A stretch of DNA of 54,672 nt, counting the filler, from Basidioascus undulatus (lineage: Eukaryota), in assembly GCA_000826855.1 (NCBI GenBank). It is 3 parts of 3 records of this genome, joined end to end, with 100 filler letters (N's around TTAATTAATTAA, not from the genome) between each part and the next. Parts side by side here need not be neighbours in the genome. Positions count along the whole stretch, not along the records: positions 36,550 to 54,672 come from JTLS01000483.1; 2 more parts are not named here. The stretch is one strand, 5' to 3'. This document shows positions 7,579 to 54,672 of the stretch, piece by piece. Made by a program: the position numbers and the translations under genes. The stretch's first letter is position 1; every line of letters begins with the position of its first letter. The notes below the pieces were generated by a model that saw nothing but the letters and a program-made list of their open reading frames with translations, was not told where the DNA came from and made no database searches.

Positions 7579-8998
7579 AGCGCGAAGGCAGGAGGGGAGG
7601 ATGAGGAGCGGGAGGGAGCTTGGGAAAGGGGAAAGGGAAGCTGAGTGAAATATGAGGAGTGTATAAGTCATGATATGAACTCACGGTAAAATCCCAGAGG
7701 CAAGCCCGCCTACTGCTCGACTGATCGTCCTAATCGAGTGCGAAGTCCGAATGCAGCACAGCTTCCGAGCACGAGAACCGCGAACAGTGGGTTGTTTACT
7801 GCCCCAAGATTTGATGAGTATACAATTCTGCGTATAATTAGAGATGTCTGGCTCACTTCGGCTGCTTGGGGTCTACTAGGATGACGGGAAGGGGCAGAGA
7901 GAAGACGAGCGGGTCACGGGGAAAGCCCAAGGGTAAGCCGGGTTGCCTGGCTCGTGGGACTCGCTGACTGTGCAATTTCACTTTCTGCTGCACGTACTAC
8001 TGTCGCCGATGCTACATTGCACCCGGGATATGTTAAGCGGCCAAAAAAATTAGAAAACAAAATTGTTTTATTTGTCTAACGCCGGAGCTATCACATATTA
8101 TGACTGCGAGAACAGAACGTCGATAATGGTGAAACTGCGATGATTCTCACCCGCAAGCTAGACATTCCCTTTTCTCTCCTCTCATTCCCCAATATATCTC
8201 TCTCTATTTCAAAGTAGACAGTAGTTTGAAAGGGTTGTGGAGCTGACCAGAGTCGGCCGAGGCTGTAGGGGGCTGATACGGGGCCACTACTGCTGCAGGG
8301 CGGCACCGAGCATTCCCTTTCCAGCTCTACCATCTTTCGAGCGCAACACTGCCTTCCATGCAGACATTTGATCACAGTAAAAAGGGGATTTCAAAGATCT
8401 ATTCAGTCATTCCAGCTCGCTGTTCTCTTCACTCCGCCAACAAGCCTTATCATTTGCTGAATGAAGATTTGAACATGCAAAGAACATGCTTGGGAGAACT
8501 TGGTCGCTGCAATCTAATCATAGATTGTCAAACCCGACAAGAATACTATATAAATGGATTTGACTTTCACAGGTCCTATAAGGCAAAAAGGCTCGGAGCG
8601 AGGACAGCTTTAGGCTCGCCAGCTGCCGATTCATCTGCCCCTCGGCCGCTCCCGAGCGAAAAGCAGCTGACTGTAAGAAAACATCTAAGGTGTAGCCGGA
8701 TGAAAGAGCCAGTATATTTTAGTGTTCTTCTGAAGGTATAGCGCTAACCTTGTGCGTACTCTGCACACTCTACATCGGCGCATAGCGCATGGACCGCATG
8801 AAGCAGTCAAACACTCGAAAGATGACCCTCACTTCTGTTGAAAATATGTTTAAATTTTCCAAAGGGTATTGGCCAATGAAGGCCCCGCGGGCGCGATGTC
8901 AGCCGACTCCTCGTGGAGATGCGGCTTGCACCGCGTTTCTGCCACCATCTCGCTCCCCGCTCCAAAACTGCACCTCTTCACTCCACTCACACAACAGA

Positions 8999-36549: not shown

Positions 36550-36644
36550 TCCCTGCTCCCTCATCTTTCCTCTCCGCCATCCTCATATTATCTCTATACG
36601 CCCCCTTTCTCCTCTCCCTCCCCTTTCTCCCTCCTAGCACCTCC

Positions 36645-36932
36645 ATGCGCCTCCCCGGCGTCCTCGCGCCCCTCTTCGGACTCGCCATCGCCGCAGTCAG
36701 CGTCGCAGCGAGCCCGGTCCAGCAGCAGCACCCGCTCGAGCTCGAGCTCTCGCACGGCGGACGAGGCGGGGAGGTGGCCAAGAAGTCGCACTTGAGCCAC
36801 TGGGCGAAGAAGACCAAGAAGGCGTTCTTGGATGATGTGCGCGAGGGGCGGGGGAGGAGGGAGGGCGCGCTCTTGGTTCGGCGGCTGTTCGAGCCGGGTA
36901 GGGGGAGGAGCGGGTGGCCGATGCTTAGCTGA
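36645..36932 (+). CDS. Small signal-peptide ORF; possible internally deleted exopolyphosphatase-like relic
   Basis: Signal peptide MRLPGVLAPLFGLAIAAVSVAA; LSHWAKKTKKAFLDDVREGRG recalls the segment before the GNEAGDLDS motif of basidiomycete DHH exopolyphosphatases, but that motif is absent. Confidence 0.35.
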   Translation: MRLPGVLAPLFGLAIAAVSVAASPVQQQHPLELELSHGGRGGEVAKKSHLSHWAKKTKKAFLDDVREGRGRREGALLVRRLFEPGRGRSGWPMLS

Positions 36933-37152
36933 TGATAGATTGATGGAAGGAGAGAGGGAGGGATCACCGCTTACGCCACGCACACTACACTACTTTCCAC
37001 CATGAGTCGATGACGCCCGATTTTCGGACCTTGTATCCCCTCCTTCGGACCTGCACTCTTGTATCCGTATCCGCATACCTGCACACACATCCACACACCA
37101 CTTGCGCGCACTGCCTCCGGGTGCCTGATCTGTGTCTGCATGCGCGTGCGGC

Positions 37153-38100
37153 TCATCTCAACCCCGCGGACGCAGGCAATCCATCGCCGAGCCCCAGCAC
37201 TTTTTTCAGACGCCGCCGCACCATCGCGCTTTCCTTTTCCAGCAACATGGCAACCCTCCCTCGCGCCGCCTCGTCGCCATCGAACGAAAAGACCGTCGCG
37301 CTCCCAAAATCGATCCACATCACATCGACATCCCACTTCCCCGCTCCCTCCTCCTCCCCCTCCTTCTCGTCGTCTGTGCTGGAACTATCCACGCGCACGA
37401 GCAGATTCCGCGCAAACGCGTCCCCATGGAGCACCCCGCGCTCATGCACGCGCTCGAGCGTGCGCATCGCGCGCTCCAGAACCGCGCGGCGCTGCCCCTC
37501 CGTCCACGTCAGCGTTTGTGGAGGGGATTTGTCCAGCGTCGCGTGGGTGTGGACGTGTGAAGAGAGGACGAGTGCGGGCATGGGGGTCTGGGAGGGGCTT
37601 TTCGAGTAGGACAGGAGGGCGGGGAAAGGCGGGGCGAGGAGAAGGAGGCCATGCGCGAGTGGGATTGCGGATGGAGAGAGGGGCTGGAGGTGCGCGTAGG
37701 TTTCGATTTCGGTTGATAAGGGTTGGAGTATGGAGGGGCGGGGTTGGTGAAGGGAAGGATGAGGAGGGGTTGGCATACAGGGGGTTGCCGGGCTGTTCTT
37801 GGTCGATTCTGGCGGCGCGAGGGGTCCAGGAGGTTCGGGTACTGGGTTCAGATCAAAGTTCAGCGCAACACGAGATCTTGGGGCTTTGAACGGGATGAAG
37901 TGAGACGCACGACTTTGAGGATCAATTCTTCAGTACCCGCATAGCCTGCACCAGGCGGAAAGGTAAGCAGAAACACGTCTGCTTTTGGGCCGCGCGAGAG
38001 GATCCGCGCGGAGAGGATCAAGTCCCATGGGAGGGCAGTCTGCGGGAGCGGCAAATCGAGGAAGTGCGTGGAGACGGAAGCATGGCACGGGAGGGGGGAG
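37153..38100 (-). CDS. Protein-kinase-like fold protein (atypical fungal kinase)
   Basis: LILKV beta3 lysine, EIETYAHL helix C, VHERGVLHGDAFARNLL catalytic loop, WIDFGSA; 5' exon joins uncertain. Confidence 0.75.
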
Positions 38101-38492
38101 GATGTGGCGAGGAAGCAATAAGAAAACAGCAAACGCACGCGCGGCAGCTGCCTGTCGAACAGCTCATTCCGTATTGGACCTTTGGTTCGATGTCGCTGGA
38201 TTTGACCAAACACTACTATGCAATTAAATGCCCGTAAAGTATATCATGTGTGTATGGAAGAGTTGGTAATGCTGACAAATGTGATGTGAGAGAAAGATCC
38301 CGACGACGAAGAAAACAGGGAAGGGGGAAAGAAGCCACTGGCGCAGTCGACATGGAACCGCAACTCTATAACAGTTTATCTCAAGGGTATACACAGGAGC
38401 CTCCAGTAAAAAAATCTATAAGGAAACCCTTCAGATGTTTGCCCCAATTTGCCCCTCAGTTGATGTTGTCTACAAGCGTAGACAGGCCCTGC

Positions 38493-38550
38493 CGAGGAAG
38501 GAAGTGCGAGGAAGGAAGTGCGAGGAAGGAAGTGCGAGGAAGGAAGTGCG
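38493..38550 (+). repeat. 14-bp tandem repeat (CGAGGAAGGAAGTG)x4
   Basis: Four perfect copies read directly. Confidence 0.95.
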
Positions 38551-38589
38551 TCAGTCGCTTGTCAAGTCCGACAACATGCACCTGGTCTA

Positions 38590-40135
38590 ACTTACCTGCT
38601 GAGTCCCAACCAAGTGCTCGAATTGCGGTCTGTACTGCTCTACGAGTGCACAATTGCGCATGAACAGACGGAACGCGCGTGGGTCCAGCACGGGGTAATA
38701 CGTAAAGTGCTGCCCGGCGCAGAAACTATTCAGCGCGGAAAGGAAGATTGCATTCGCCAAGAATTGCCACTCACGGTTTAGATCACCCGGAATGGGGAGG
38801 TCCCAGCGAATAGGCCACCGAAGCAGCGCTCGCTGGAAGTCTTCGGACAGCAGGAAGTTGAGGAACAGTTTGGCGGCCTCCGGTTATTGAGCAATAGGGC
38901 AGCCAGCGTGAACGAACCGCGCGTAGTGAAGTGACAGTGCGGTTGTTGCAGTTGAGGACCTCAAACGAGGTGTCGGTCCCCCTTACCCATAAGATGTCTT
39001 GATTTTGAATGAAAGCGATGATCTGCACCGTGAGGCGATGCAACATCAACTGAAGGCCGAGTGCGTAACAGCATCAACCAGCACGTGCCTCATCCTAGCC
39101 ATTACTGCTGCACGAGGAGGTAGAACCTAAGGTTGTTTTTCAGAGTCAGTGCCAGGCTGAATACTAAGTGGAAAATTCTTACTGAAACAGGACCGCGTCG
39201 TCGTCGTTCGGATAAGTGAGGGCGAACTTGCCCTTCCATTTCGGGTCTTGGAAGCGGGGAAGTCCCGAGGTGCTGTTGTTTCGTCCAATCCAGGGACCCG
39301 TTGGGGAAAGTGGGCCCGAAGTAGAAGAAGAAGTAGCCGCTGCTCGGAACAGGACGCTCAGCGCTGACGCATAAAGCAATGAGCGACATTGCAGGGGCGC
39401 GCATACCTCCAATACTCCTCGGGGTCTTTCGCGAAGTCAAAGACCTTGTCGAAGCCAAGAGGCTTGTACTGCATAAGAGCCTCTATACAATCCCATAGCT
39501 CAAGTGAGTCCCCAGTAACGACAGTCCCTACACGACAACGTACCCTCGTCTTTCCATCGGTCAAAATCTTGCAGCGTCTGCAACAATACGATATCGGTCC
39601 CAGCCATTCCCGTGAGATTGAAGTTGCTATCGATAGCACCGTCGTGATACTAAACGGACGAGGAGGGTCAGGGATCAACGGTGTCGCTGATGAGAGCTTC
39701 CGAAATATACGCCAGAAAGCTCGGCCTACCTTAGAGAAGTCCACCGACCAGTTAACGTTGATTTAGGGAATCTGGCCTGAAATGCGGCCATCGCTGCGAT
39801 GGAATGAATGTTACCGACCGAAAGCCGCCTGGGAGGGTGAGTACATGTATAGTCACTGGCATCCTGCTGCCCCTCCCTGCTCGTACGCTCCAAAACGTAT
39901 GTCGAGCTGCCCGCTTCAACGATCACAGCTTGGTACATCTCGTCGAGAGACCGATGCTCAACGCTTCGGCAGTATTTTGATCGGAACCTTCGGCGGTTGC
40001 AGCTCGGTTGAGGCCTACGGCCAGACGTTCGGTGGGGAATATCTTGGCTTGAGTTAGCTTGTCTCCAGCGGAGCTCGGTGTCGATCGCGCATATGGAACA
40101 CTGAGTGCGAGCAGGAGAAGGGTGGTGTAAAGCAT
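38590..40135 (-). CDS. Secreted periplasmic-binding-protein type II-like protein (ABC Fe3+/thiamine-binding-like), possibly frameshifted
   Basis: Signal peptide; RSLDEMYQA, AFQARFPK, VDFSK-YHDGAID, LQTLQDFDRWK, YKPLGFDKV, DPKWKGKFALTYPNDDDAVLF, WVRGT, AAKLFLNFLLS. Confidence 0.8.
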
Positions 40136-41233
40136 ATCTAGTCAAGATCAGCAGGGTGTGCTAACTTTGAAGAGGGGACAAAGAGACGACCTCATCCCAA
40201 AGATCTCGGACTTTATAACAGGCATGCCGAGAGTGCGAGATGTGGCTCAGCCGCCGAACCGCCGCATGCGTAAGTTGGGATGCGTCGTGATCAACGGGAT
40301 CAAAGAGCTAACAAAGACCTGCTACGGGACCTCCATAACGCTTCCGTGGTGTTTCCGACATTTAATTAACGTTCCGCAACAAACATACTCGCAAGCGAAA
40401 GGTGTGACTGTACTTCCACCTCCGCACAGCCAGCCACCTCGACGTTGGAACACCCGCCACAACCGCAACCGCTCGCTCTTCGCTGAAAAACTCCCAGCGT
40501 GTCATTCCGTTGCTTTATTGGAACTATGGCAACACCTCAAGTATCAAGTCCCATCAAGCACTCGCTAGTCTGATGACAAGCCGTTGATCGTCCGTGCCCA
40601 TGAAGATTTCCCGATCGGATTATCAACCAACAGGTTGCTCAAGACTTTCCGACTGGGGGTTCTTTGGCTTCCGTCGAAAACTTCCGAGTACTTGAGGCAG
40701 TCATCCGAACGCGCTGACATGCAGCCGTACTCTTTCGCAAAGCGCTTCGAGCCTTGCTTGCCACGAGCCACTGCAAGAACTTGCAGGCGCAAACGAAATT
40801 GAGTCGCTCCTTCAATGTTTACACACTATGACATTCTCTTGAACCCATCTTGCAGAGGGTACATCCGTCTGTGTAAATTGACTCGCAAGACGTAGAACTT
40901 CTGTGTTGCCAGGCTATGACCATTTTGGGGACAATCCCACGGACGGCCTCAGTAGTATTCCACAGCAGCTCATTTTTTTCTGTCTACACTCCCGTAATCC
41001 TGAAACTGTTATTGATCAAGCAACATGAAAAGCAGCATCAAGTTGCCTCAAGCCAGTAAAGTGTATTCGGCCGAAGACTCCGCTCCGAAGGTCGTATCGG
41101 GCGGCTCGCTCTGTGCCGATCGGCAATCTGCCGTCGATAAGCCTGCTTGACTCGCTCCTCTGGAATCTGTTGCACGCGATACGCCATTTTAATACGCGAC
41201 CACCACCATCATCATCCTCTGCACTAACTGAGC

Positions 41234-43697
41234 ATGATGACCTCCTCAGCGACGGTGCGCCAGCCGCAGCTGGAGCCGCCTAAACTTGAATCCATAGAGA
41301 AGACGCCCTCTAGAGCACTGCTCGAGCAGCCGTCGCTGCCGCCTGCCCTCGCTGTAGATATAGAGCGCCTCCCGGTCGAGGACGACCCGAGGGAATGGTC
41401 GGATGCTTGGAAGGTAAAGTATGTTCAGCTTTTAGTCTACCCGCTCATGGTGGCTGAGATGCGGATGTTCGGTTGGCCAGAACGCAACGCTATTTTGTAT
41501 ATCTTTCGCATCGATGTCTCCCACATTCTGTGAGTCGACAGTCCAGTAAAATTTATGCTCTGCCCTCCGGCGCTGAAACAAGCTCCCAGCGGCATCAATA
41601 TACAGTCAGTTACCCTTCGCATCCCTTCTCCAGGGCGCTCACTTACGCAACGCTGCCTTCCACAGCACCCGCAATCAATATTATTCAAAGTGATCTGTAT
41701 GGCACGAGCGACGACATCTCACTATCGTTGGCGTTATTCATTCTGTGCGCTATCAATTCATATGCCGTCCCTCTCCGGTTCAGCTCACAGTCGCACCTTT
41801 GCACAGGCTGCAGGGCGCGACGCCTATCATCTGGTCTGCACTGTCGGAGGTCAAGGGCAGGAAGATAGTATACCTCATCAGCCTGACCCTGGTCCGTTTA
41901 CTCGTTTGAGGCACTCTGATATTCCATGATTGCTCATAGACACTGGTGTGCAGTTTACGGTCGGCACCGTTGTTGCCTCGAGAGCGATGAACATGGGGTC
42001 CGCAACCGCTGGGCCCTGAACTTATAAACAAAGCGCTGTTCTGACTGTTCGGCCGTGCTACAGTGTTCTCATCGGCATGCGCTGTCTCGGCGCGATCGGA
42101 TCATCCGCTGTATTGTCTATAGGTGCTGGAACGCTAGCCGTACGTACATTTCCCTCTGACAGGCCGCGTGTAGCGCCTTCCCTTTTTAGACGCTCACACT
42201 CCCGTGGCTTGCTACATGTAGGACATCTACGACACGAAGGAGCGAGGAACACGTATGGGCATCTACTATGCATTCCCTCTGCTTGGCCCTGCCTTATAAG
42301 TTGCTTCTCGCCCCCGGACCCTTTTGTGCAAGCTGACACGCGCTTTCTGTCCGCACTGGTCCTCTGTTGGGAGGGCTTCTCACACAGGTGTTCACTTGGA
42401 GAGCAACATTCTACTTCCTGTCAGTCTGCCAAACTTTCTAGTAAGCATCACGGCGCTGACCGTTCACCTCCACTGCAGCGCCTCTATGGGCGGATGTGCT
42501 GCCGTCTCCTTCCTCTTTTTTAAAGACACCTTCCGCCGGGAGCGTTCCGCGGCGTATATAGCCGCACGCAAACGCGCGGTTGCTCACGCCGTCTTCAAGG
42601 CTGAGAAAGGCGGTCAAGCTGCGGACTTTAAGGCCGAGGACGTGCAGGTCAGACTGACACTGGCGGACGTCAACCCGCTCGCGCCTGCTGGCCAGATCTT
42701 GAAGATGCCGCATAATCTCTGTGAGTAATAGCGGGAACAGGGGTTCCGTCAAAGCAAGCTGATAGAGTGGGCGTCGATCACAGGCACGCTTTTCTTCACC
42801 GGCATGATTTTTGCGTCGCAATACTCGCTGTCCATCACGGCGGCAAGGACATTTGCATTCGCGCCCTACAACTACGACACCCTAATCGTGGGCGCGATCA
42901 TACTCGCTTTCGGGGTCGGATCGGTGGTCGGGAGCGTGTTCGGCGGGCGCCGGTCGGACCACGTGCTAGCGAACCTCAAAGCGAAGAACAACGGCGTGCA
43001 CGAACCAGAAGTGCGCCTTTTCTTTCAACCTCAGACTATCACCGCCCTTGGCTTAACGCTTAACAAGCATAGTTCCGCATCCGCTCCATCCTCTATGCGT
43101 TGCCTGTTCTGCCGGCCTCGTTCCTCGTGTATGGCTGGATCGCGGAAACTCACCAGCATGTCGCTGTGTGCGTCGTGATCTTGTTCATCGCGGGTGCCGC
43201 GATGGCCGCGACGTACTCTCCCATGCTAGCCTACGTGGTGTCCGTCATTTTGCCATCCGTTCTTCAAGGCAATAGCTGAACCCACAGCCTTTTTTGCATT
43301 GACAGTGACTCCAACGCAGGCCGCTCGTCATCCGCTGTGGCGTGTAATTCCCTTTCTCGAGGCCTGTCCGGATTTGTGGCATCGATGATCGCCATTCCCC
43401 TACAGGTAGCCCTCCAACCTTTTGATCTTTTTTGAACGCACACTGATCGACACCCCTGCCCTATTCAGAACGCGATCGGAGACGGTCCCTTGTACACAAT
43501 CTGGGCCGGTCTGATATCGGTGAGTCCTTTCTCGTCTGCACGCTCCGAGCCTGTCAGACCAGCTAAGCCATTTGAGCAACATTCAGTTTGGGGCCATCGC
43601 CATGCTGTTTTTGGTGCGGTTCGGGACGAGCTGGCGGGATCCGGAATGGAAATGGCGGAAGGGGCGGAATCCCGCCGCTGGGACTGCCGAAGCATAG
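41234..43697 (+). CDS. MFS drug:H+ antiporter (DHA1; DTR1/QDR-like)
   Basis: DIERLPVEDDPREWS, QGATPIIWSALSEVKGRKIVY, GSSAVLSIGAGTLA-DIYDTKERGT, FKDTFRRERS, GSVFGGRRSD, DSNAGRSSSAVACNS. Confidence 0.9.
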
Positions 43698-43843
43698 ATT
43701 CAGTTCCGTTCGCTAGCCTACCATGGACTTGTTGTATGTCAACGACAATATTCGTGATGTTCAACAGCCTATCAAGAGACAGCGCGACACTCATATCAAG
43801 TAGGGTAAGAGCATGAATGGTTGCGTGCGGCAGAGCACACCTT

Positions 43844-44782
43844 CTACGAGGTGCCCGACAGAGATACCCCTTCCAGTTCCCAGAGAGTACCCTTCTCCAC
43901 CTCACTCCGAATCCACATCATCCTGTTCTCCATCATATGTTTATCGTCCAGCACCGGCGCTCTCAGGAAAGCCACATCAAGACCTTCCCGTGCCGTCCGC
44001 GCCGCCACCCTCATCTCCTGCAACGTTTCCAGATCGTAAAATGCCCTCTGAAGTTCCCGACCACTGATGAAGATAACCCTCCGCAGGCTTTTTCCCCGCT
44101 TGAATAGCTTTTGTATGATCGGTAGCCCTGGCTCGGTGGCCTCGAAATCTGGTGTGTCGAGGACGAGATGGGTGAGGTGCGGAAGAGCGATGATGGCCTC
44201 GACGAAGTGAACGTCAATGCCTGGATTATAGATCGCAAAGCGACGAAGAGAGGTCCATCCCGGCCAGCAGACCCAGTAGTCAAGGTCGTCGAGAGGGGTA
44301 CCCAGGAAGAATTCGCACTGGATGGAGACAGCTTCCTCGAGCTGGTGACAGGGCGCGAGCGTTCCACGTAGGAGCGGGCGCACGCCGTGCTTGTCTTCTT
44401 CGGGCCAGAAAATCCTAAGCTGCCGATCGAACAAAAGCCGGCGAAGGAAGGGGCGGACTAGGACGAGGAGCGACGCGAGGTCAGTCGACGACGGCGGGAG
44501 GAGGGCGTGAGGGAAGTCGCGGAGGGAGAGCGAGCGGGTGTGTTGGACGTGATGATTAGCAAGAGTCGACAGTGCGTTAAAGAGCTTCGTGAGTTGCAGG
44601 GCGGAGGATATGATGATGGTTGAATAGAGGTGAGGGGCTGATATGCGGTAGAGGTCGCGGCTGACAAGACAAAGCTCGAGGAGGGCCGCTTGAGCGTCGC
44701 GTTCGCGGCCGTATTGCAGCGGATGGCTTGGGAAAACCAGAATATCGACGGCGTGTTTAAGTAGATCGGTAGGGATGCGCAT
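43844..44782 (-). CDS. F-box-like protein, single exon
   Basis: MRIPTDLLKHAVD...LLELCLVSRDLYRISAPHLYSTIII; LRR-like LRRFAIYNP and LPHLTHLVL; uninterrupted ORF. Confidence 0.75.
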   Translation of the reverse strand: MRIPTDLLKHAVDILVFPSHPLQYGRERDAQAALLELCLVSRDLYRISAPHLYSTIIISSALQLTKLFNALSTLANHHVQHTRSLSLRDFPHALLPPSSTDLASLLVLVRPFLRRLLFDRQLRIFWPEEDKHGVRPLLRGTLAPCHQLEEAVSIQCEFFLGTPLDDLDYWVCWPGWTSLRRFAIYNPGIDVHFVEAIIALPHLTHLVLDTPDFEATEPGLPIIQKLFKRGKSLRRVIFISGRELQRAFYDLETLQEMRVAARTAREGLDVAFLRAPVLDDKHMMENRMMWIRSEVEKGTLWELEGVSLSGTS

Positions 44783-45124
44783 CGAAAATCGAGGCTCGAG
44801 CGAGTGGCGAAGCTGATCGAGGGGAAGGTCGTGACGATGGAGCAAGACGAGCGGAGGCGGCCTTCCGAGCGTCCGCCGTCTTAGTCCGGAGGCTGTGCTT
44901 GCTAACACGTCCGGTTGGCCGCCACAGAAAGTGGCGTATACTCAGATATCTGCACAGATTCGTGGAAATACCACTCGAACCAATAACCGGAGTCGGACAG
45001 AATTTTGAGCTACTGGGAGGTAGCCGGCTGGCTGTGGGACAACTCCATATTGGCGTTGCTTGACGGATGTCCATCGACTTAATACAGACATCATGAGAAT
45101 CAGGTCTCTTTAATATCATTTCTG

Positions 45125-45295
45125 TTAAAGTCCCGCATCGTACAGCCACTTGAGTACGCCCTTCGCCCCACCCAACCCTGCCAGCACGAGCGCAAAGTGC
45201 GCGACTCCAAGTCCAAGCACAAACGGCAACACGACGCTCGTCCAGGTGCTTCCGTCGCCGGCGCTCGCGGATGTGGGGCCTCGGGGTCGCACCAT
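45125..45295 (-). CDS. Small single-TM hypothetical protein
   Basis: MVRPRG...WTSVVLPFVLGLGVAHFALVLAGLGG hydrophobic stretch; 56 aa. Confidence 0.35.
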   Translation of the reverse strand: MVRPRGPTSASAGDGSTWTSVVLPFVLGLGVAHFALVLAGLGGAKGVLKWLYDAGL

Positions 45296-45752
45296 CAAAC
45301 GGGGCTGAAGTGGGTTGATGTCTTGGCTCGGATTGGGCTGTCGAGGGGACGCAGCGCGGGCGGACGACTGCTGGAAGTGATGAGTCAAATAAGGAGGGAT
45401 CGCATGAGGCAGCGGCTCATGGGGTCACCTCTGGCTTGGAGGGCATCATGCAACAGTAGAACCGTTTTTGCAGAAGCAGACTAACGGGGCTGTTTGAGCC
45501 GGTTGTGGTGAGTAAACAAGAGGCAAACAGCGTGTTCTTTTTAAAGTTCCGTCGCGTGGGAGTTGAGGGCACGGCAGTCGTCTTGATGCATTGTTTGGTC
45601 TTCTTGTCATCTTATCTTGTTCGTGGATGAATAAACCTGGGAGCTGAAGTGTAAAAAGAAGCGTTCTAACTTGCCAGTGTCCATGTCTGTGGTCGTTCCA
45701 ACCGCGGGGGACAGTAAGTGAAGTCCATCGGCGTTCCCTGCTCCTCCTCCCC

Positions 45753-45765
45753 AAAAGCAACAAAA
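45753..45765 (-). terminator. Putative RNA Pol III terminator (T4 runs) after the tRNA 5' half
   Basis: Minus strand CTGTTATGA TTTT GTTGC TTTT directly follows A37. Confidence 0.6.
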
Positions 45766-45774
45766 TCATAACAG

Positions 45775-45858
45775 TACGAGTGGCGCGCTCTACCACTGAG
45801 CTAAAGGGGCCTATTCAATACGTGCCCCCTGGCTGGATTGAACAACCGACCTCACCAT
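45775..45858 (-). tRNA. Circularly permuted tRNA-Thr(CGU): 3' half (45858-45823), 12-nt spacer, 5' half (45810-45775)
   Basis: Minus strand: ATGGTG AGGTC GGTTG TTCAATC CAGCC AGGGGGC A | CGTATTGAATAG | GCCCCTT TA GCTC AGTGGTA GAGC G CGCCA CT CGT A; the reordered halves give a complete cloverleaf. Confidence 0.9.
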
Positions 45859-46823
45859 TTCGCTGCCACACAACTAACATGTCGCTGCATGTAGAGAGAA
45901 ACTTAAGACATCAGAACCAATCAAGCTTACGAAAGCTCGTCTATGGCACAATGTTTATTGAACTTTGGCTGTACATGCTGAAGTGTAATACTTCTGATAA
46001 GGTACTCCAAACAACGTTGGGATATCCGATAAAGCACGGCATGGGTGTTATTTGAAATTCCACGCAGTCACTGTGTCTATCCAGCGGTGTAGCCTTTTCA
46101 GTCGTGAAGTATAGAACAAAGTTGGAGATAAATATGATGAATAACATGCCAGATTTTGGCCACATTTTTCAAGATAAAGAGTCACCAGAGTCACTGATCA
46201 GCTTCATCATAACTGGCCAAACCGTGGAGAGAACTGCGCTGCCGCTCTGTGTTTGTTTGTGTGCTCGTTTCAAACATCCAACACAGCACGCATCTTGAGA
46301 ACCCGAAAGATTTTAGGACCCTATGACAGTGAGCTGAAGTTTCGTCTGGACTCGAGATTAACATCTTCCATGGAAATTCTTAGAGCCGAGGACCCTCGCC
46401 GCGAGAGCAGTAACCTCAACGTTTACATAGACTGTGACTGGATGTCCACAGGAATCAACTTGAGCGTCTCAGATTACCGTTACTCGTCCGAAGCGGTCCA
46501 ACCAAAGCGTCAAAAAGCCTAAACATCAACCAGCGACGAACTCGCAACGCCTCATCGCAAAAAGCACCTCGGGCCATAAAGCACACATTAAGGGGTCCAT
46601 GTTACTATTCCCCACCTTTTGAGAGGAATTTAGGCGGTATTCTTATGCAAAAATACCCAAGGCGGCGCACTGCATGTGGCAGGCTGCTATCTTGCCGTCA
46701 GATCTCCATGACCTACTGTAGTGGAGAGTTCGTCCTCATAGCTCAGTCGCTGCTAACATAATGCAAACATCTTGTCATATCTCATTTCGAATGCCCAACG
46801 CCCACGGCCGTCCAAGGCCACGC

Positions 46824-47277
46824 TCACACCTTCTCCTCCATTGCCGCCCGGTCCGCCTCGGTTTCGGGACCCTCCTGCTCTGTCCAGAAAGTGCTGATCG
46901 ACGTAGCGAAGAGCACCAGATTCAAAGACCCCCTTTAATCCCAGCGAGACGCCCAGCTACGTCAGGTTCAGCCGCCTTCTCCGGCCACTCTGTGGAAATA
47001 CGCACCCAGAGGCGACCATAAAGTAGTCGCAGATTTCGTAGATCTGGACCAGCGTGTCTTCGTTGGGGTGCGGATCCCACAAGGCCATGTAGACTTCGAT
47101 GGAAAGGCTGGCACCGATTGCGAGGACCATGATAGCGGCGCTGGCGAGCACAACACACTCCAGAGTGGAAATGCTGTCGCCCTTGGGGTCTTGCACGGCA
47201 GGCTTTGCGTCTTCGGGCTTCGAGTGCGTATAAATCGACTGGCACGTCCCGATAAGAAGGGGGGTACGCTCGCTCAT
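46824..47277 (-). CDS. Small membrane protein, hypothetical
   Basis: MSERTPLL (dileucine-like motif), hydrophobic VVLASAAIMVLAIGASLSI, a probable GTGCGT intron and a second hydrophobic exon. Confidence 0.45.
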
Positions 47278-47956
47278 GGCCTCTGTAGGATAGATACTGG
47301 GGATTTCGGGAGTGTGTGGACGAGGCGACTGGGTAAACAAGGGGGAAGTTGGCCAACCCCCGCCATGTGGAGGAGCAGAGGGGGCGTAAGCAGTGCAGGT
47401 TGCGGCATACGGCTCGGCGGCGGTGAAAGTGGCATGCAAGTCTCGGACGTGCGCGCAGGGGGTGCCGCAGCGTGTTTGTCGAAGACTATAACAAAGCGCT
47501 GACATCCAACCTCCTTAAACTAAGGCTATAAAATAAACTGTTTTACTGTTTGGTTTACCCTGAAGACTTTTCGAAGTTGGTGAAGATGAGGCCACAGACA
47601 GTTTGATGTCGAATCTTTGGCCTGAGAGCTCAGTACCGAACCTACTCTGCAGCGCTTCAGGCCGAGGGTTCCAGGATGAGCACACCTTCGCATATACTGC
47701 TTGTTGAAAAAGAAGGTAACTTGAGTTGCTTGTAGTTGCTTGTAGTCTTACTTGGCACGTTGGCGAGCTGTGTTCGCATCTGTTCAGTGCGCTGCAAACT
47801 CAAACGAGCGGTGACCTCAGCACTTTCAACTTCTTTGTGGTATCGACCTGAAAGACCTTCAGCAACAAGTAAAGCTTTTCATTGAAGATCCAGCGGAACT
47901 TTGAACAGGACGGTCAGGATCTTGAGCGTTCCGACGTCCCTCATTGCGCGGCCACC

Positions 47957-48653
47957 ATGACCTTCTGGACTCTATCCTCATCGGTAGTGGGTGCCGGCTT
48001 TGATAATGACATATCTTTACTGACTGATGTTCGACAGACAAAAAAAGCGGTACTGAGGAATGCAGGTCGCTCGTTCAGCACCACTGCTCCGCAAGGCAGA
48101 GGCGAGTCGTCTTCAAACGCTCTCCACTTGAAGTGGTTCTTACCGGGCTTGCGACGGTTTGGTGCTCGTGAAAAGACGTCGGAGAGGTGATAAAGCAGGT
48201 CTACATCCGCGCTATCAAGGAGTTCAGGCCTCCTCCGCGTGTTCGCCTTCCTTCTCCTCGCCTCCGACACACTCACAACTCAGTCCTTTGGCCTTCAAAC
48301 AGAGACCCGACGACCACGTCGGACAGGTGAAGCCCTTCCGCGTGATCACGCCCCCTCACGCGCCGCAGCCTCCGTCCGGGGCGGACCTAGCGCTCGAGCT
48401 GCGCGCGTACGAGGCGGACGAGGCGACGTACGTCGACCGCGGGTCCGAGGCGCTGCACAGCCATGAGATCGAGAGCCTCGAGCCGTTCAAGGGGCGCGTG
48501 GACGACTGGCTACGCTGGCTCGGGGAGGAGTACCCCCACGCCGACGCGAAGCCGCCGCCGGTGGACGTCAACACACTTCCGCCGGCGCCGAAATTGGATG
48601 ATGCGGTGAAGGATGAGGGGGCGGGCGGGGAGGGGAGGGAAATAAAAGGGTGA
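47957..48653 (+). CDS. ATP14: Mitochondrial ATP synthase subunit h-like
   Basis: GCCACCATG start; presequence RNAGRSFSTTAP; VIKQVYIRAIKEFRP, DDHVGQVKPF, P-P-rich segment, ADLALELRAYE. Confidence 0.6.
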
Positions 48654-48807
48654 GGAGTTGAGAGGGCGCCAGAAAAGCACGGTTGTAAGTGTTGTGATGC
48701 AGCTGGGCGATGATGGAGGAAATGAAAGCGGCGTCTATGCCACCACAAGCAACATGTCCTGCATCTAAGCCCACAACACTCCATCAACCCATCTAAGCGT
48801 GCTCCTT

Positions 48808-51800
48808 CTATACCGAAAAGACGAAAGCAGGATGCCTGCTCCCCAAGCGCGCAATCTCCGCTTGGGACTGGGAGAAAGCCAAATCAGCCGCATGCAGCCG
48901 AACATGGGCTAGGACAGACGTACCTTCCCCTGGATCCGGTGATCCCGCTTCCCAGCCGCCCGCAGGCGGTTTTCGCGGCTGTTGTAAAACCATGCTAGGC
49001 AGACGAGCGCGAAGAGCCTGAGAGGCAGAAGCGGGGGTGAGTATGCTGGGATTGGATCAGCGGGTAAACGGAAGAGGGTCGACGGACACGCAGGTCGAGA
49101 CGAGGTTGAGGCGGTTGCCTGTTCGTAACGAAGATGGGAAGAGGAGAAAACAGTGTACTGGATGTCAGCTATGGGAGGATGCTGAGTCTCAATCTGCTAG
49201 AGACTGACCGATAGGGTAGTTCGGCGCTGGAGCGGGAAAATAAGTATTGTCAGTAAACCTCCTCGTACGGACCTGTTCTCAAGTGCCTCACCGTCCGACG
49301 GAAGGTATGACCAAGTCGCAGCGACAGCGCCGATGCTCGACAGACCGACGACCCTGCCCTTGCACTATTAGCGCTAACTTGCACTGCCATCCCTCGTTTC
49401 CTCAACGTACATAGCAACCGCCGTAGCCCGGCTCGTATCAGGTGCGACGTTGTTCCCGATCCAAGCCATGAGCTGCGGGCCATCAGACCTATCAGTCCTC
49501 CTCCACCTTTCAACTCGCTCGGATCACAAGCTCGCTCACGGTAGGCACGACGGTGAACACCCCCCCGGCAGCAAAGAACGCGGCAGCGTAGCGCGCGCGC
49601 GGGTTGTTGGTGCCTACGAAAATGGCGTACCTGTTTGATTTGGGACGTGTCAATGTGAGGAGGGAAAGGAGGAGAGGGGAGAGGAGGGAGGGAGGACGCA
49701 CCCGATTATTGAGACGGGTACGGAGACCATCAGGACTGCTGCGCGGCGGTTGAGCTTGTCGCATGCGTACGCGTGCGCGAGGGACCAGACGAAGGAGAAG
49801 CCTTTGCGTGCGAGGTACGAGGTAAGCGATCACTGCCGGAAGTGCGCGAGGAGAAGACGCACAAAACGGCGCGGCGGACTTGAGCTGCACCTGGACCATG
49901 GCTGTGACGGTTCGCGCGCTCGTGAGATGTTTGGACGGAATGGAGGAACTGGGAAGGGAGTACTCGCTGATGGGTCCAGTCCGCGCACGATGGCTGTTCC
50001 CCGGTGCCGCATGAGTACTGTAACAGCGGTCTAGAGCAAAATAGTAGAAAACGAAGCTCTCACTGGGCATGAACAGACTCAGACCCTGCACCGAGATCTG
50101 CGCGCAGATCGCTGCCTGCGCGCCCACACAGAGCTCAGCCGCGGTCTTCCAGCCTCCTACTCCTCAGCATCAGGCAACTCACGACGACGAATATGCACAC
50201 CTGCTCCGTTGCCTCATGAGCGTCGGCCCGTGTGGGGAAGAGAGAGAGACAGATAAAACGCACATTGATGCTCCCCACCCCCCTCCCCACAAGCCCCCAG
50301 TCTGTCCGCTCAACCATCTTCTTCCCCCCCGCAGGCGAAGCGACCGTCTCGCAGCGGACGCGGGCGATGGCGAGGGCTTTTCTCCCCGAACGTCAGTTAG
50401 ATGAATGGGGAAGCGGGGAAGATGTGGAGGTAGAAGCTAAAAAAAAAAAAAAGGACGCACTCCGCTCTTCGGGCGTGAGGAACCCCGCGTGGGCCGGCTC
50501 AGAGGGGAGGATGGGGCGGAGGAAGAGGAGCGTGATGAGCCCGCAGCCGGTCGTGATTATCCCTTCTACCAACTACGCTTCGCCATCCATCTTCCGCCCA
50601 TTAGCTTGCAACTTCCAAGGAGAAAAGGAAGAAGAGGAGCAAGAGGAGAAGACGCACGAAGATGTTCCTCCACGACTTGACGCTCCCGACGGACCCGACG
50701 TGCAGGATCCCCGAGGCGATGAGCGAGCCGAACGCGGCGGCGAGGGACGAGGCGGAGACGAATATCCCGACGCGGAGGACGAGCTCGCTTCGCCTGTCTA
50801 TTCGCACCATCGCACCAGCCACATCCCATTTTTCAGCGTCTCGTTCTAGCAAGGTTCGCTGGCGCAGGCGCACAGAAGCGGGCGAGGTAATGGGTAACGC
50901 CTTCAGGAGGAGGGTGAGCAAGAGAGGAGAGGGGAGGGGAAGGAGGAAAGACGGACCGGGCATGACTCCACCCTCCGTGAGGCCCAGCATGAGCCGGACG
51001 GCGATGAGCCCGCCATAGGACTGTATGAAGGCTGTACAGAGGGTTACGAGGCCGAAGCTTTCGGATCACGATACGCAAAGGTTGAGGGGAGGGAGCGCGT
51101 CAGCAGAAGAGGGGTGGGGGGAGGAAGGACGCCGGGACGCACCCAGTGAGGAGCAGCGCAAGCCACAGATGCGGCCCGATCGTCGCGGATTTGAGCGCGA
51201 GATTGGAGGGGACTTCGACGAGAGTGTAGGACTGTGCTCCACCCCCCACCAGTCAACTCAACACATTCCGGAAGCATGAGCCTGCGTGAGCGGGAAGACA
51301 CACGACGAAGAAAAGGGTGAGGGCGACTGCGTGGATGGTGGAGTTGTCAGACAGGGAAACGGAAGGGCGGAAAACAGAGGGACAGACTGTTGTATTCGTA
51401 CCCGTGCAGACCTAGGTCTTCTTCCAGGCCTGCTACGCGAGCGTTTCTGTCGGTGGGAGGCGAGTCATTTATGTGCTCGGGGGGCAAAGGAAGACGCTCG
51501 CTTCGCGTACCCGATGTTTGACCCTTCGTTTTCGTTCAAAATGTCAGCTGGAATAAGGAGGTGGTACTAGTGTGAGGGGGTGCGTACGGTCCAAGAAACA
51601 GAGACCTTGCATGATCTATCCCCAGCCACCCAACCTCGCTTCAGCATCCCAGAAAGAAGAGAAATGCGCCGCCTGCCTCAGCTCAACGCACGAACGCAAA
51701 TGTCACGAGCCTGATGTCCAACTGTCCCGCAAAAATCAGCTATTTTTCCAGACCAAGAACGGAAAGAAGAAGTGTCCACTCACCTTCCTCACGAGCGCCC

Positions 51801-51927
51801 GCTCCGCCTTCTTATTGCCCAAGAGCGGGTGGGTGCTCGGGTCCCCCCCCGTATCAACCGAGTCTTTCGACGCCGCCGCTTCCTCGAGCGTGGCCGAGAG
51901 GACCGAGGGCCTGCGGAGTGTCGTCAT
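48808..51927 (-). CDS. MFS anion:cation symporter family permease (TNA1/DAL5-like)
   Basis: AERALVRK, LLGLTEGGVMPG, YLARF-RRSELVLRVGIF, SWRNIF-VEGIIT, FLTPEER, VQGLSLFMP, RARYAAAFF, LGSRHPAFVF. Confidence 0.85.
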
Positions 51928-52243
51928 TCTTCCTTGAGGTGGTGGCTGTCTGATGAAAAGAAGGAGAAGGAGTGGGACGGAGGCAACGGGGCAAGGAAGA
52001 GGGGGAAAGATTCCCACGCACGCGGGAAGACCGATCAGGGCAGGGCAAGAAGGCGGAGGCGAGGCTTTGACTTCTTGCTGCCGTCATCATCAACGTCGCG
52101 CTCGTCGGGCGGTATAGCGAGCACGAACTTGTCGGCGACGAGCTCGAGTATTGTATACGTTGTTCCAGGACGAGCACGGTCATCTTGGCAGGAATTCTAT
52201 TCTCTCCATTCTCGCTTCCTCCCGCACCCCCTTCCCGCCCGCC

Positions 52244-53647
52244 ATGTCCGCCCAAGTGCCCACATCCACCACCGCCAAATACGGGCAGCTTGTCAACGGC
52301 CCTCCAGCCTCAGGCAAGACGACCTACTGCTCGGGGCTCAACCAAGTGCGCCCTGTGCACCATACCCTCATCCCCACCTCCCCACTCACCCTTCCTCCCC
52401 CGACAGTTCCTCACCGCCCTCGCCCGCCCGCACACCCTCGTGAATCTCGACCCCGCCGCCGAGCCGCCGCCGTACCCCGCGTCCATCGACATTCGGGACC
52501 TGATCACCGTCAAAGACGTGATGGACGAGTACTCGCTCGGGCCAAACGGCGCGATGCTCTACTGCTTCGAGTACCTCGACGCCAACTTCGACTGGCTCGA
52601 GGACCGCCTACGCGCGCTCCGGCCCGACGAGCAGGGCTACGTCGTGTTCGACTTGCCGGGGCAGGTGGAGCTCAGCACGGGCCATCGCGCGCTTGCGAAC
52701 GTGCTAGGCAAGCTGGGGAAGTTGGGGTATCGGGTGAGTCGGGCGGCTGCCTGGTGGGTTGTATGGCATGGGTAGGAGAGCTGAGCAACCCCCCTCCGTC
52801 CTGCGTTCGGGACAGTGAATAGCTCTGCGCGGTGCATTTGACGGACGCGCATGCGATTGCCGACCCGTCAAAGTATATCTCGGCACTCCTCCTCTCCCTC
52901 CGCACGATGCTCGCCCTCGAGCTCCCGCACATCAACGTCCTCTCCAAGATCGATCTCCTCAACACGTATGGGGAGCTGCGTGGGTCTCTCTTCCCTGCTC
53001 TATCTCCCCTTCTTACTCCTCTCCCTCTCCACGCCCTATTCGCTCTGCGTTCCGGCTAACATGGCACCCCCCCCCGCGCGTGCAGCGTTCAACCTCGACT
53101 TCTACACCCAAGTCCAGGACCTGCACCACCTCTCCGATCACCTCTCGTCGGATCCCCGCCTCGCGCGCTTCGGCAAGCTCAACGAGGCGGTGTGCGAGCT
53201 GGTTGAAGACTTTGGGCTCGTGTCGTTCGAGACGCTTGCTGTTGAAGTGCGTCTTGCACCTCCACGTCTCCTCTTCTCAAGCTCTTTTTTCCTTTGCATT
53301 TCGCTCTTCTCTAATTCGCCCTGACATCCAACCAGGACAAGCAATCGATGTACCGTCTCCTATCCGCAATCGACCGCGCCCTAGGCTACGTCTTCCTCCC
53401 TCCCCCTACCCCCGGCTCCTCCGCGCCGCCATCGGCAATGGACCTGTTCTCAACCGCCATGGGCGCGCTCCCCGAGTGGGCGGGCGGGGACGTGCAGGAG
53501 CGGTGGGTCGATGCGAGGGAGGAGTGGGACGCGTGGGAGCGCGAAAGGTGGAAGGAGGAGGGGGAGGAGGTGGAGAGGAGACGGGTCACGGAGCAGGGAG
53601 GGAGGTGGAGGGGGAGCGCCCCGGCTGGAGAGGGGGAGCGCACATGA
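52244..53647 (+). CDS. GPN2: GPN-loop GTPase 2
   Basis: GQLVNGPPASGKTTYC, VNLDPA, LGPNGAMLYCFEYL, FDLPGQVELSTGH, ELPHINVLSKIDLL, NLDFYTQVQDL, IDRALGYVF. Confidence 0.93.
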
Positions 53648-53971
53648 AGTGAGGTTGTTGTGAGAGGAAAGAGCGTGTGTGTGTTTGTCTGTGTGTGTGT
53701 GTGGTGTCTGTCGTTTGCCATGTGAAAGCGAGGCAAAACTTGGCAGTATTATATGCTTCTTGTATTCATAATTTTATTCGGAAGGCTTAGAATAAAAATG
53801 CTCCGCGAGAAGGCTGCACTTGGACTCGTAGGCAGTAGACCGGAAGACGCGCTCGAGATCGACGATCGCCCGCGGGCCGACTTGCACCTGAACACAACGC
53901 TCACCACCGCCTGCCTCTCGCCTCCCCCGCTCTCCCTCCCTCCCTTTCCCACCCGCACACAAACCACCTCA

Positions 53972-54672
53972 ATGGTACCCCTCTCCTCCGTCCCATTATA
54001 TCCCCCCACCGTATCTCATTCCCTGGCCCGCTGACCCGCAGATGCCTTGGCTCATCCTCGGCGCGCTCGGCGGCCTCCTCGGCAGCTGGCTCATCAAGCT
54101 CAACATCCTCTTTGCGCGCACGCGCGCGCGCTCGGCGTTCCTCAGCGAGAACAAGATCCTCGAGGTCGCCGTCGTCGCGGGCCTCACGGCCGTGCTCAGC
54201 TATCTGGTGCTCTTCATGCGGTACGCTATGCACACACTGCTCGGGACCTCCGCTTGCCGAGCCAAACAAACGCTGATGTCCGTCGGGCCCGAAACAGCGT
54301 CCAGTCGTCCGATCTCGTTGCGGCGCTGTTTCAAGAGTGCTCAGCGGATAGCTCGTCAGATGTGACAGACGCCCTGTGCGAGTGCGTCTTTGCTTTTCCC
54401 CAGCGCCCCCGAACAGCTTGCTCAACCCCGCCGTGGTTTCCCCACAGCCCGAACCGCCGGCTGGCTAACATCTTCCTCCTCCTGCTCTCCGCCCTTTTCA
54501 AGACGGTCCTGACAGCATACACATTTGGCATCTCCGTCCCCGCCGGCGTTTTCCTCCCCGGCCTCACAATCGGTTCGCTGCGCTCTCCCCACCCTTCCTG
54601 CGCCTACCTCCCTTCCCTCGCTTATTCCGAACATGACAGGCGCCTGCCTCGGCCGTGCGCTCGGCCTCCTCC
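53972..54672 (+). CDS. CLC chloride channel/transporter (GEF1-like), C-terminal half only, runs off the window
   Basis: PWLILGALGGLLGSWLIKLN, EVAVVAGLTAVLSY, LFQEC, KTVLTAYTFGISVPAGVFLPGLTIG-ACLGRALG; N-terminal CLC motifs (GSGIPE, GKEGP) not present upstream. Confidence 0.85.

Follow-up and report, generated by a model that had tools for sequence, protein, structure and literature searches.

A circularly permuted tRNA-Thr(CGU) gene and its paralogues in the genome of Basidioascus undulatus

The stretch of DNA examined here, referred to as the window, comprises 54,672 nucleotides of Basidioascus undulatus, filler included (assembly GCA_000826855.1; three parts joined end to end), and the part of it that comes from JTLS01000483.1 (positions 36,550 to 54,672) carries on the minus strand the two halves of a tRNA-Thr(CGU) gene in permuted order, the 3′ half coming first, followed by a linker of 12 nt and then by the 5′ half. 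The 3′ half is preceded by a leader and the 5′ half is followed by a trailer (Table 1). When the two halves were rejoined in script, ARAGORN identified a 72-nt tRNA-Thr(cgt), with CCA appended, in which all four stems are intact, with 7 pairs in the acceptor stem (one of them G-U), 4 in the D stem, 5 in the anticodon stem and 5 in the T stem, and with a T loop reading TTCAATC; its A and B boxes are normal. The tRNA gene at this locus is circularly permuted, with its break at 37/38; this had been claimed in an earlier note made from the sequence alone, and the claim is borne out both by the order of the halves on the minus strand and by the cloverleaf that they form on rejoining.

In its native order the gene was silent in standard searches, as ARAGORN reported 0 tRNAs and Rfam gave 0 matches at gathering score across the whole 54.7-kb window. 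A loose Rfam search (E up to 10) of the stretch 45650-46000 placed the tRNA family RF00005 on the 5′ half and unrelated trailer only, below its cut-off (18.0 bits against 29, E = 0.35). An identity as YrlA (RF02553), suggested by the same loose search, was dropped, the match scoring 18.7 bits against a cut-off of 69 (E = 0.19) and the likeness being confined to the order of T arm before D arm. On the opposite strand, adjoining the tRNA locus, a sub-threshold match to the box C/D snoRNA snR64 (45884-45983, plus strand; 17.5 bits against a cut-off of 38, E = 0.82) was dropped as probable chance. Neither half recurs elsewhere in the window, even when 9 mismatches are allowed, and the 400 nt on either side, aligned locally, showed no vestige of an outer half, matching no better than shuffles (p = 0.88 and 0.50). 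Owing to the absence of other half-copies in the window and of such vestiges, a gene pair with a long intron and a fresh tandem duplicate at the locus were both ruled out.

Table 1. Coordinates of the permuted tRNA-Thr locus within the window, and of the paralogous contigs aligned to it
Feature	Position	Strand	Remarks
A-box-like motif in leader, -18..-8	45876-45866	minus	34 nt upstream of B box; 7 of 9 specified positions
Helix, leader strand, -12..-5	45870-45863	minus	TGTGGCAG; pairs with 45767-45774
Leader	last base 45859	minus	...TGTGGCAGCGAA; fuller stretch GTTAGTTGTGTGGCAGCGAA; from sequence
Last four leader bases, CGAA	45862-45859	minus	G(-3) at 45861; A(-2), A(-1) and A38, candidate 3′ splice-site bulge
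3′ half, A38-A73 (discriminator A73), 36 nt	45858-45823	minus	ARAGORN cloverleaf after in-script rejoining
B box, inside 3′ half	45843-45835	minus	GTTCAATCC; from sequence
Linker between A73 and G1, 12 nt	45822-45811	minus	from sequence; presumed substrate of end-processing enzymes
5′ half, G1-A37, 36 nt, 7-nt D loop	45810-45775	minus	ARAGORN; partial Rfam tRNA match
A box, inside 5′ half	45803-45793	minus	TAGCTCAGTGG; from sequence
C32	45780	minus	from sequence
Anticodon CGT	45778-45776	minus	from sequence
Trailer	first base 45774	minus	CTGTTATGATTTTG...; longer stretch CTGTTATGATTTTGTTGCTTTTGG...; from sequence
Helix, trailer strand, +1..+8	45774-45767	minus	CTGTTATG; from sequence
Two T4 runs	45765-45762 and 45756-45753	minus	directly past helix; candidate RNA polymerase III stops
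Record 3 (X1)	45774-45861		interior of 12.4-kb contig; 11 differences, no gap
Record 4 (X1)	45775-45863		9 differences, 2 gaps
Record 5 (X1)	45775-45862		88-nt contig, 2.3-2.5 times single-copy depth; 9 differences
Records 11, 12 (X2)			counterparts of records 3 and 4
Records 13, 14 (X2)	45788-45851		two 60-nt contigs; 1 difference each, 4 linker bases missing

The permuted order is not confined to the window. From two public DNA runs of this genome (X1 and X2, from two studies, about 35 million letters each), contigs were aligned at 80% likeness on 45600-46050, differences being listed only when they lay more than about 31 nt from the end of a piece. X1 contigs equal the flanks of the window copy, with 0 differences over 45600-45800 and 45839-46050, and X2 contigs show 0 differences over 45600-45800 and one gap over 45823-46050. 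At least five further loci in the same genome share the order 3′ half, linker, 5′ half, giving at least six loci in all. The linker is the most variable part among these paralogues, with 6-7 of its 12 positions changed or 4 bases missing; records 13 and 14 differ from the window solely in and beside the linker, which implies a linker of about 8 nt. The listed differences fall in the linker and, for records 3, 4 and 5, also at 45805-45807 and 45827-45829, that is, at acceptor positions 6, 5, 4 and 69, 68, 67. In record 4 the pair C4-G69 has become U4-A69 and U6.G67 has become U6-A67; in record 3, C5-G68 has become G5.U68 and U6.G67 has become C6-G67, the latter change recurring in record 5. When the three records are combined, a standard pair is kept in 8 of 9 pair cells and two pairs are altered on both sides. 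The anticodon arm of record 5 is the same as that of the window, all nine of its differences being placed elsewhere, while 2 differences of record 3 and 1 of record 4 carry no position, so that either anticodon may differ from that of the window.

Outside the halves the paralogues share little, their flanks being unrelated to the window beyond leader -3..-5 and trailer +1, with loose ends that start, for the trailer, at 45771-45775 and, for the leader, at 45861-45871. On the tRNA strand the paralogue trailers open with T-runs 9, 5 and 5 bases long, which fall within about 10 bases of the 5′ half. Two short contigs extend the comparison on the leader side: record 16 (40 nt, 45823-45862) consists of CGAA and the whole 3′ half with 0 differences at a depth of 302 against 37-49 in the flanks, or about 6 times single-copy, and record 7 (34 nt, 45834-45867) takes in leader -1..-9 with 0 differences at a depth of 93.8 against 18-20, or about 5 times, indicating that these nine leader bases, five helix bases included, are common to about five copies. 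The depth over the halves reaches 26-55 times that of the flanks, a sum that takes in any contig 80% alike and is therefore not a copy number of the permuted gene. None of the X1 and X2 contigs joins a 5′ half to a following 3′ half, as a conventional gene would, though contigs show presence and not absence. As the halves are conserved, the stem changes keep pairs, the linkers vary freely, the flanks are unrelated and T-runs follow the 5′ half, the pattern is, as judged by sequence comparison, that of a dispersed polymerase III gene family with its tRNA body apparently under constraint, and such a pattern is hard to reconcile with an assembly artefact or with a single accidental rearrangement.

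Some observations on these contigs stand apart. X1 and X2 differ in their paralogue contigs, record 5 being present in X1 only and records 13 and 14 in X2 only. One paralogue trailer consensus has its 9-T run followed, about 20 nt after A37, by a short motif resembling the start of a 3′ half, which might mark a tandem intermediate of one and a half copies; the consensus is mixed (0.70) and rich in GGTG repeats, and the motif may mean nothing. Record 17, from run X3 (the sample of X2), is a low-depth contig of 263 nt ending in a Thr-like 3′ half with 4 differences in 36, preceded by other sequence including a small hairpin; it perhaps derives from another organism and was set aside as uninformative.

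The leader and trailer of the window copy are complementary to each other, as the earlier note had pointed out in describing a stem of 7-8 pairs with several G-U, and the span 45767-45870 that it gave corresponds to the exact outer ends of the proposed helix. Leader -12..-5 faces trailer +8..+1 in the pairs U.G, G.U, U-A, G.U, G.U, C-G, A-U and G-C, amounting to 8 gap-free pairs of which 4 are Watson-Crick and 4 G-U. In a position control of the same geometry, applied window-wide (84-nt spacing, G-U allowed, start at trailer +1 or +2, 3-5 free leader bases, 6 registers), a helix of at least 8 pairs flush with both junctions arose in 32 of 15,584 placements (0.2%), and a flush helix of such length is thus rare by position. 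Explicit-structure energies were -25.5 kcal/mol for the cloverleaf alone and -31.1 kcal/mol for the cloverleaf with the 8-bp helix, the helix contributing -5.6 kcal/mol, as compared to -26.9 kcal/mol when the lone pair G(-3):C32 was added to cloverleaf and helix, and -33.6 kcal/mol for a 7-bp helix with A(-2):U33, G(-3):C34 and C(-4):G35. The probabilities of the helix pairs were 0.26-0.98 with the cloverleaf imposed and 0.04-0.15 without it, and unconstrained folding of the precursor did not form the cloverleaf. No obvious leader-trailer helix was seen in the loose ends of record 3, where the 30 nt on both flanks are a mixed consensus of two contigs (agreement 0.65-0.70) in which pairing cannot be judged.

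At the 3′ splice site, C32 is complementary to G(-3), and if the two paired, A(-2), A(-1) and A38 would be left as a bulge of 3 nt. The folding model favours instead a 3-bp anticodon-leader helix, A(-2):U33, G(-3):C34 and C(-4):G35, over the lone G(-3):C32 pair, thereby placing the 3′ site in a 1x2 internal loop and not in a 3-nt bulge; the best model at the junction is a 3-bp helix, a 1x2 loop and a 2-nt bulge. This competing arrangement, with the anticodon paired to the leader, is equally intron-like. The strict archaeal bulge-helix-bulge consists of a 4-bp helix and two 3-nt bulges, and in the corresponding register, 32:-3 to 35:-6, the bases read C-G, U/C, C-G and G/A, so that 2 of 4 positions pair; the remark in the earlier note that the junction is not a perfect archaeal bulge-helix-bulge is consistent with this count. 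The presence of CGAA in common among the permuted copies fits a selected 3′ splice-site element. It fits equally well an origin of leader and trailer as the opposite ends of an ancestral 37/38 intron, which is what the tandem-duplication model predicts where 37/38 introns are the rule.

With regard to promoter elements, the leader contains an A-box-like motif that agrees with the A-box consensus at 7 of the 9 specified positions (Table 1). A match as good is expected by chance in about 6% of 30-site zones; the motif is weak, and a role for it as a surrogate promoter element is speculative.

The remainder of the window is in keeping with a fungal origin. Its G+C content is 52-62%, open frames are short, and recognizable genes, which are split into many exons, include those for a biotin-protein ligase, F-box proteins, a sugar transporter, a PGAP2IP/Cwh43-like protein, a family-20 glycosyltransferase, a GPN-loop GTPase and a CLC channel. 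The nearest atlas clusters of the window are fungal, and among 15 relatives of the biotin-protein ligase (longer proteins only, at 28-42% identity) the 11 that are named all belong to Basidiomycota; on this protein-level evidence the host is taken to be a basidiomycete fungus. The biotin-protein ligase gene (5345-7671, minus strand) is read in two overlapping frames, BPL_N at 6277-7671 and the catalytic domain at 5345-6340, an arrangement that fits a short intron. With introns allowed, ARAGORN reported a tRNA-Leu(gag) with a 21-nt intron at 7048-7165 (minus strand) inside the BPL_N frame, and this call is in all likelihood spurious. Of the 143 tRNA genes of the basidiomycete Cryptococcus, 132 carry a 37/38 intron (PMC4090602), so that maturation dependent on the splicing endonuclease SEN would be routine in this phylum.

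We favour, with about even confidence, the explanation that this basidiomycete possesses a small circularly permuted tRNA-Thr gene family, of which the locus is one copy, and that the locus probably yields a working tRNA-Thr(CGU). The following pathway is proposed, its transcription step and every processing step being ones that we infer. RNA polymerase III would transcribe leader, 3′ half, linker, 5′ half and trailer as one RNA ending at the T-runs, whereupon the halves would fold into a normal cloverleaf in which the 12-nt linker caps the acceptor stem. The flanks would then occupy the position of an intron, like an intron opened in its loop, with the CGAA before A38 presenting the 3′ site, either through G(-3):C32 and the 3-nt bulge or through the 3-bp pairing with U33-G35, and with the 8-bp leader-trailer helix of the window copy tethering the ends beside the 5′ splice site. 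SEN, which according to a review places its cuts by a ruler mechanism (PMC4090602), would measure from the tRNA body and cut between leader and A38 and between A37 and trailer, and a fungal tRNA ligase of the Trl1 type would join A37 to A38. RNase P and tRNase Z would remove the linker, either after ligation, from a circle, or before it, from two annealed pieces, and CCA would be added last. A circular intermediate has been shown experimentally in Cyanidioschyzon merolae (PMC3978253, PMC4090602). Were end-trimming to come first, the intermediate would be two annealed pieces, and the leader-trailer helix would matter more.

A number of observations weigh against this reading. With respect to expression, the sequencing runs listed with the locus include no RNA run, the stop signals of the window copy are two T4 runs only, and no clear TATA box was seen on inspection of the sequence upstream of the locus. 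Moreover, the B box precedes the A box. Transcription governed by TFIIIC ordinarily starts some 10-20 nt upstream of the A box, and since the B box here lies upstream of the true A box, standard placement would put the start near the linker. With respect to the genes themselves, record 5 has a C5.A68 mismatch in place of C5-G68, a conventional tRNA-Thr(CGU) gene may exist elsewhere in the genome, and the linker of the window copy is covered by no X1 or X2 contig, so that the exact join rests on the window assembly together with the paralogues. A metagenome scan for orthologues, using a pattern of T-loop, 3′ end, a gap of 1-30 nt and a Thr(CGU) 5′ half, yielded 21 loci of which 0 were permuted, leaving the helix without support from covariation; all 21 were rejected as neighbouring tRNA genes of the ordinary kind, prokaryotic or phage-like, in which a complete tRNA-Thr stands behind another tRNA.

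The structural evidence is likewise divided. The helix is weak, with its 4 G-U pairs, and its duplex energy of -6.2 kcal/mol is unremarkable, being equalled or bettered by 7.8% of 5,000 shuffles and, in this GC-rich window, by 42% of 2,950 genomic controls. Folding of the predicted precursor (45895-45760, minus strand), as suggested in the earlier note, indicates that the helix is reachable when the cloverleaf is imposed, but the whole 136 nt is no stabler than shuffled sequence (minimum free energy -40.2 kcal/mol, mean of the shuffles -40.16, z = -0.01). The leaders of records 3, 4 and 5 diverge upstream of -3 to -5, and the helix strand is not generally conserved. Of the proposal that the third-last leader base, a G, pairs with C32 as the anticodon-intron pair, the complementarity stands but the pair itself receives a probability of 0.00 in the folding model, with or without an imposed cloverleaf, and costs +4.2 kcal/mol under nearest-neighbour rules; as such rules always penalize lone pairs, the low score leaves the anticodon-intron pair possible. 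The view that the flanks act as an intron split in its loop and are under selection thus fares unevenly, the possible helix and the CGAA common to the paralogues speaking for it, and the rejection of the lone G(-3):C32 pair by the model and the divergence of three paralogue leaders against it. The intron-like reading of the flanks is accordingly partly supported, and that the helix is important for function is something we infer.

Several of these observations would also be expected if the genes were non-functional relics, left when ordinary tRNA-Thr genes, probably with introns, were tandemly duplicated or rearranged, and still alike through recency or through gene conversion with working copies, with leader and trailer as remnants of the old intron and the helix as chance or as a fossil intron hairpin. 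We consider this unlikely, although the lack of a listed RNA run, the order of B box before A box (wrong for a standard internal promoter), the occurrence of no more than T4 runs after the window copy, the acceptor mismatch of record 5 and the failure of the metagenome scan to return an orthologue (0 of 21) are all as it would have them, and the depth of the halves, 26-55 times single copy, means that many other Thr-like genes, possibly conventional, could supply the tRNA. A relic would not be expected to retain the perfect cloverleaf of the window copy, nor would at least five further loci be expected to have kept their halves, with two acceptor pairs changed on both sides, while linkers and flanks diverged strongly; several copies moreover have T-runs directly after the 5′ half, no vestige of an outer half lies beside the window copy and, as weak evidence, no conventional-order joint is found among the contigs.

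A fairly improbable alternative accepts that the permuted genes work and holds that the 8-bp helix is incidental, SEN measuring from the tRNA body and needing only CGAA, with the pairing unselected. The rarity of a flush helix of at least 8 pairs among the control placements (0.2%) speaks against it, whereas the 4 G-U pairs and an energy equalled by 42% of the genomic controls are what it would predict, as is the sharing by records 3, 4 and 5 of the last 3-5 leader bases only; leader -1..-9, with its five helix bases, is nevertheless common to about five copies, which may be recent duplicates. In yeast and Xenopus a duplex between anticodon loop and intron is not a prerequisite for splicing, in accordance with the ruler mechanism (PMC4090602), but free ends beside the anticodon loop would be floppy if untethered, and pairing of the flanks is seen in all known permuted and split tRNAs (PMC3978253, PMC4090602).

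Nanoarchaeum split tRNAs provide the model for joining two RNAs. A comparable mode, in which the A box would start a transcript of 5′ half and trailer near the linker, an upstream transcript would comprise leader and 3′ half, and the two RNAs would anneal by pairing in the acceptor stem and in the leader-trailer helix before SEN and ligase joined them, is very unlikely here, for although a start set by TFIIIC geometry would lie within the 12-nt linker or at the close of the 3′ half, and uniting the two RNAs would require the helix, the linker is without a T-run and so offers no independent stop between the halves, no promoter for a separate 3′ half transcript is evident beyond the weak A-box-like motif, and no eukaryotic nuclear precedent was found in the literature searched.

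Returning to a working permuted family as the preferred explanation, a bolder version of it would make this back-to-front family the sole source in the fungus of tRNA-Thr(CGU), and perhaps of further threonine tRNAs, as a first case in fungi or in any opisthokont; we regard this version as possible and somewhat unlikely. SEN and a Trl1-type ligase would in that case act on an 'intron' open in its loop, before end-trimming or on two annealed pieces, and the A-box-like motif of the leader would have to drive transcription as a surrogate, since the B box comes ahead of the true A box.

A frequent theme in discussions of permuted tRNA genes is that they are relics of early tRNA evolution. A multi-copy fungal family, if true, would mean that the layout can arise and persist alongside a standard four-subunit SEN, a Trl1-type ligase and TFIIIC, and if the pathway operates in a fungus, genetic and biochemical tests would usually be more practical there. 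The questions raised concern the order of splicing and end processing, the travel of the circular or two-piece intermediate and the means by which polymerase III initiates on a gene whose B box comes first. Genes of this kind escape standard tRNA finders, as the silence of ARAGORN and Rfam at this locus shows, and fungal tRNA gene counts may therefore be incomplete.

Permuted tRNA genes are known from a red alga, some green algae, a nucleomorph and one archaeon (PMC3978253, PMC4090602, PMC13578239), and a review of 2026 still places them, in the parts excerpted, in algae and archaea. A full-text literature search, covering titles and abstract openings and with subscription journals outside its coverage, returned, among the papers listed, none that describes such a gene from fungi or from opisthokonts at large. 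The archaeal cases are the more distant comparison: the permuted tRNAs of Thermofilum pendens and the archaeal split tRNAs resemble the window copy in that rearranged parts rebuild a splice substrate through complementary flanks, and differ from it in their 59/60 junctions, their bulge-helix-bulge and the symmetric archaeal enzyme that acts on it. Set beside an ordinary pre-tRNA with an anticodon-intron pair, the locus has the same predicted cut sites, after 37 and before 38, a pyrimidine 32 facing a purine at -3, a possible 3-nt bulge at the 3′ site and a 5′ site that is single-stranded beside a helix (PMC4090602); unlike that of an ordinary precursor its 'intron' is discontinuous, the loop being replaced by two transcript ends, and its acceptor ends are joined by a linker.

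The same isoacceptor is represented by the permuted tRNA-Thr(CGT) of Cyanidioschyzon merolae, a type II gene with an intervening sequence of 31 nt (Soma et al. 2007; PMC3978253 Table 1), as compared to the 12-nt linker of the window copy. The two agree in isoacceptor, junction, downstream T-stretch and the proposed route through endonuclease, ligase, circle, RNase P and tRNase Z. In C. merolae, however, the flanks form a bulge-helix-bulge and the enzyme accepts many positions, whereas the strict motif is absent from the window copy, and the alga has an upstream TATA-like element and is without the box-binding subunits of TFIIIC (PMC3978253), while no clear TATA box was seen at the fungal locus. 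The type II (37/38) permuted genes of prasinophyte green algae and of the Bigelowiella natans nucleomorph (Maruyama et al. 2010, in PMC3978253) share with the window copy the 3′ half in first place, the 37/38 junction in the anticodon loop and a short linker, published permuted linkers measuring 1-74 bp, which takes in both the window copy and the linkers of about 8 nt in records 13 and 14 (PMC3978253). Unlike them, the family described here has a basidiomycete host and at least six loci of one design and is known from DNA alone, and its amino acid is threonine where the green-algal cases include leucine, serine and cysteine (PMC3978253 Table 1). In the algal and nucleomorph genes the 37/38 flanks form a relaxed motif, described as suited to the eukaryal endonuclease, and not a strict bulge-helix-bulge (PMC3978253), and for the window copy two relaxed arrangements are possible. 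The principle of an intron-like junction is already published for green-algal permuted tRNAs; it is the host that is new.

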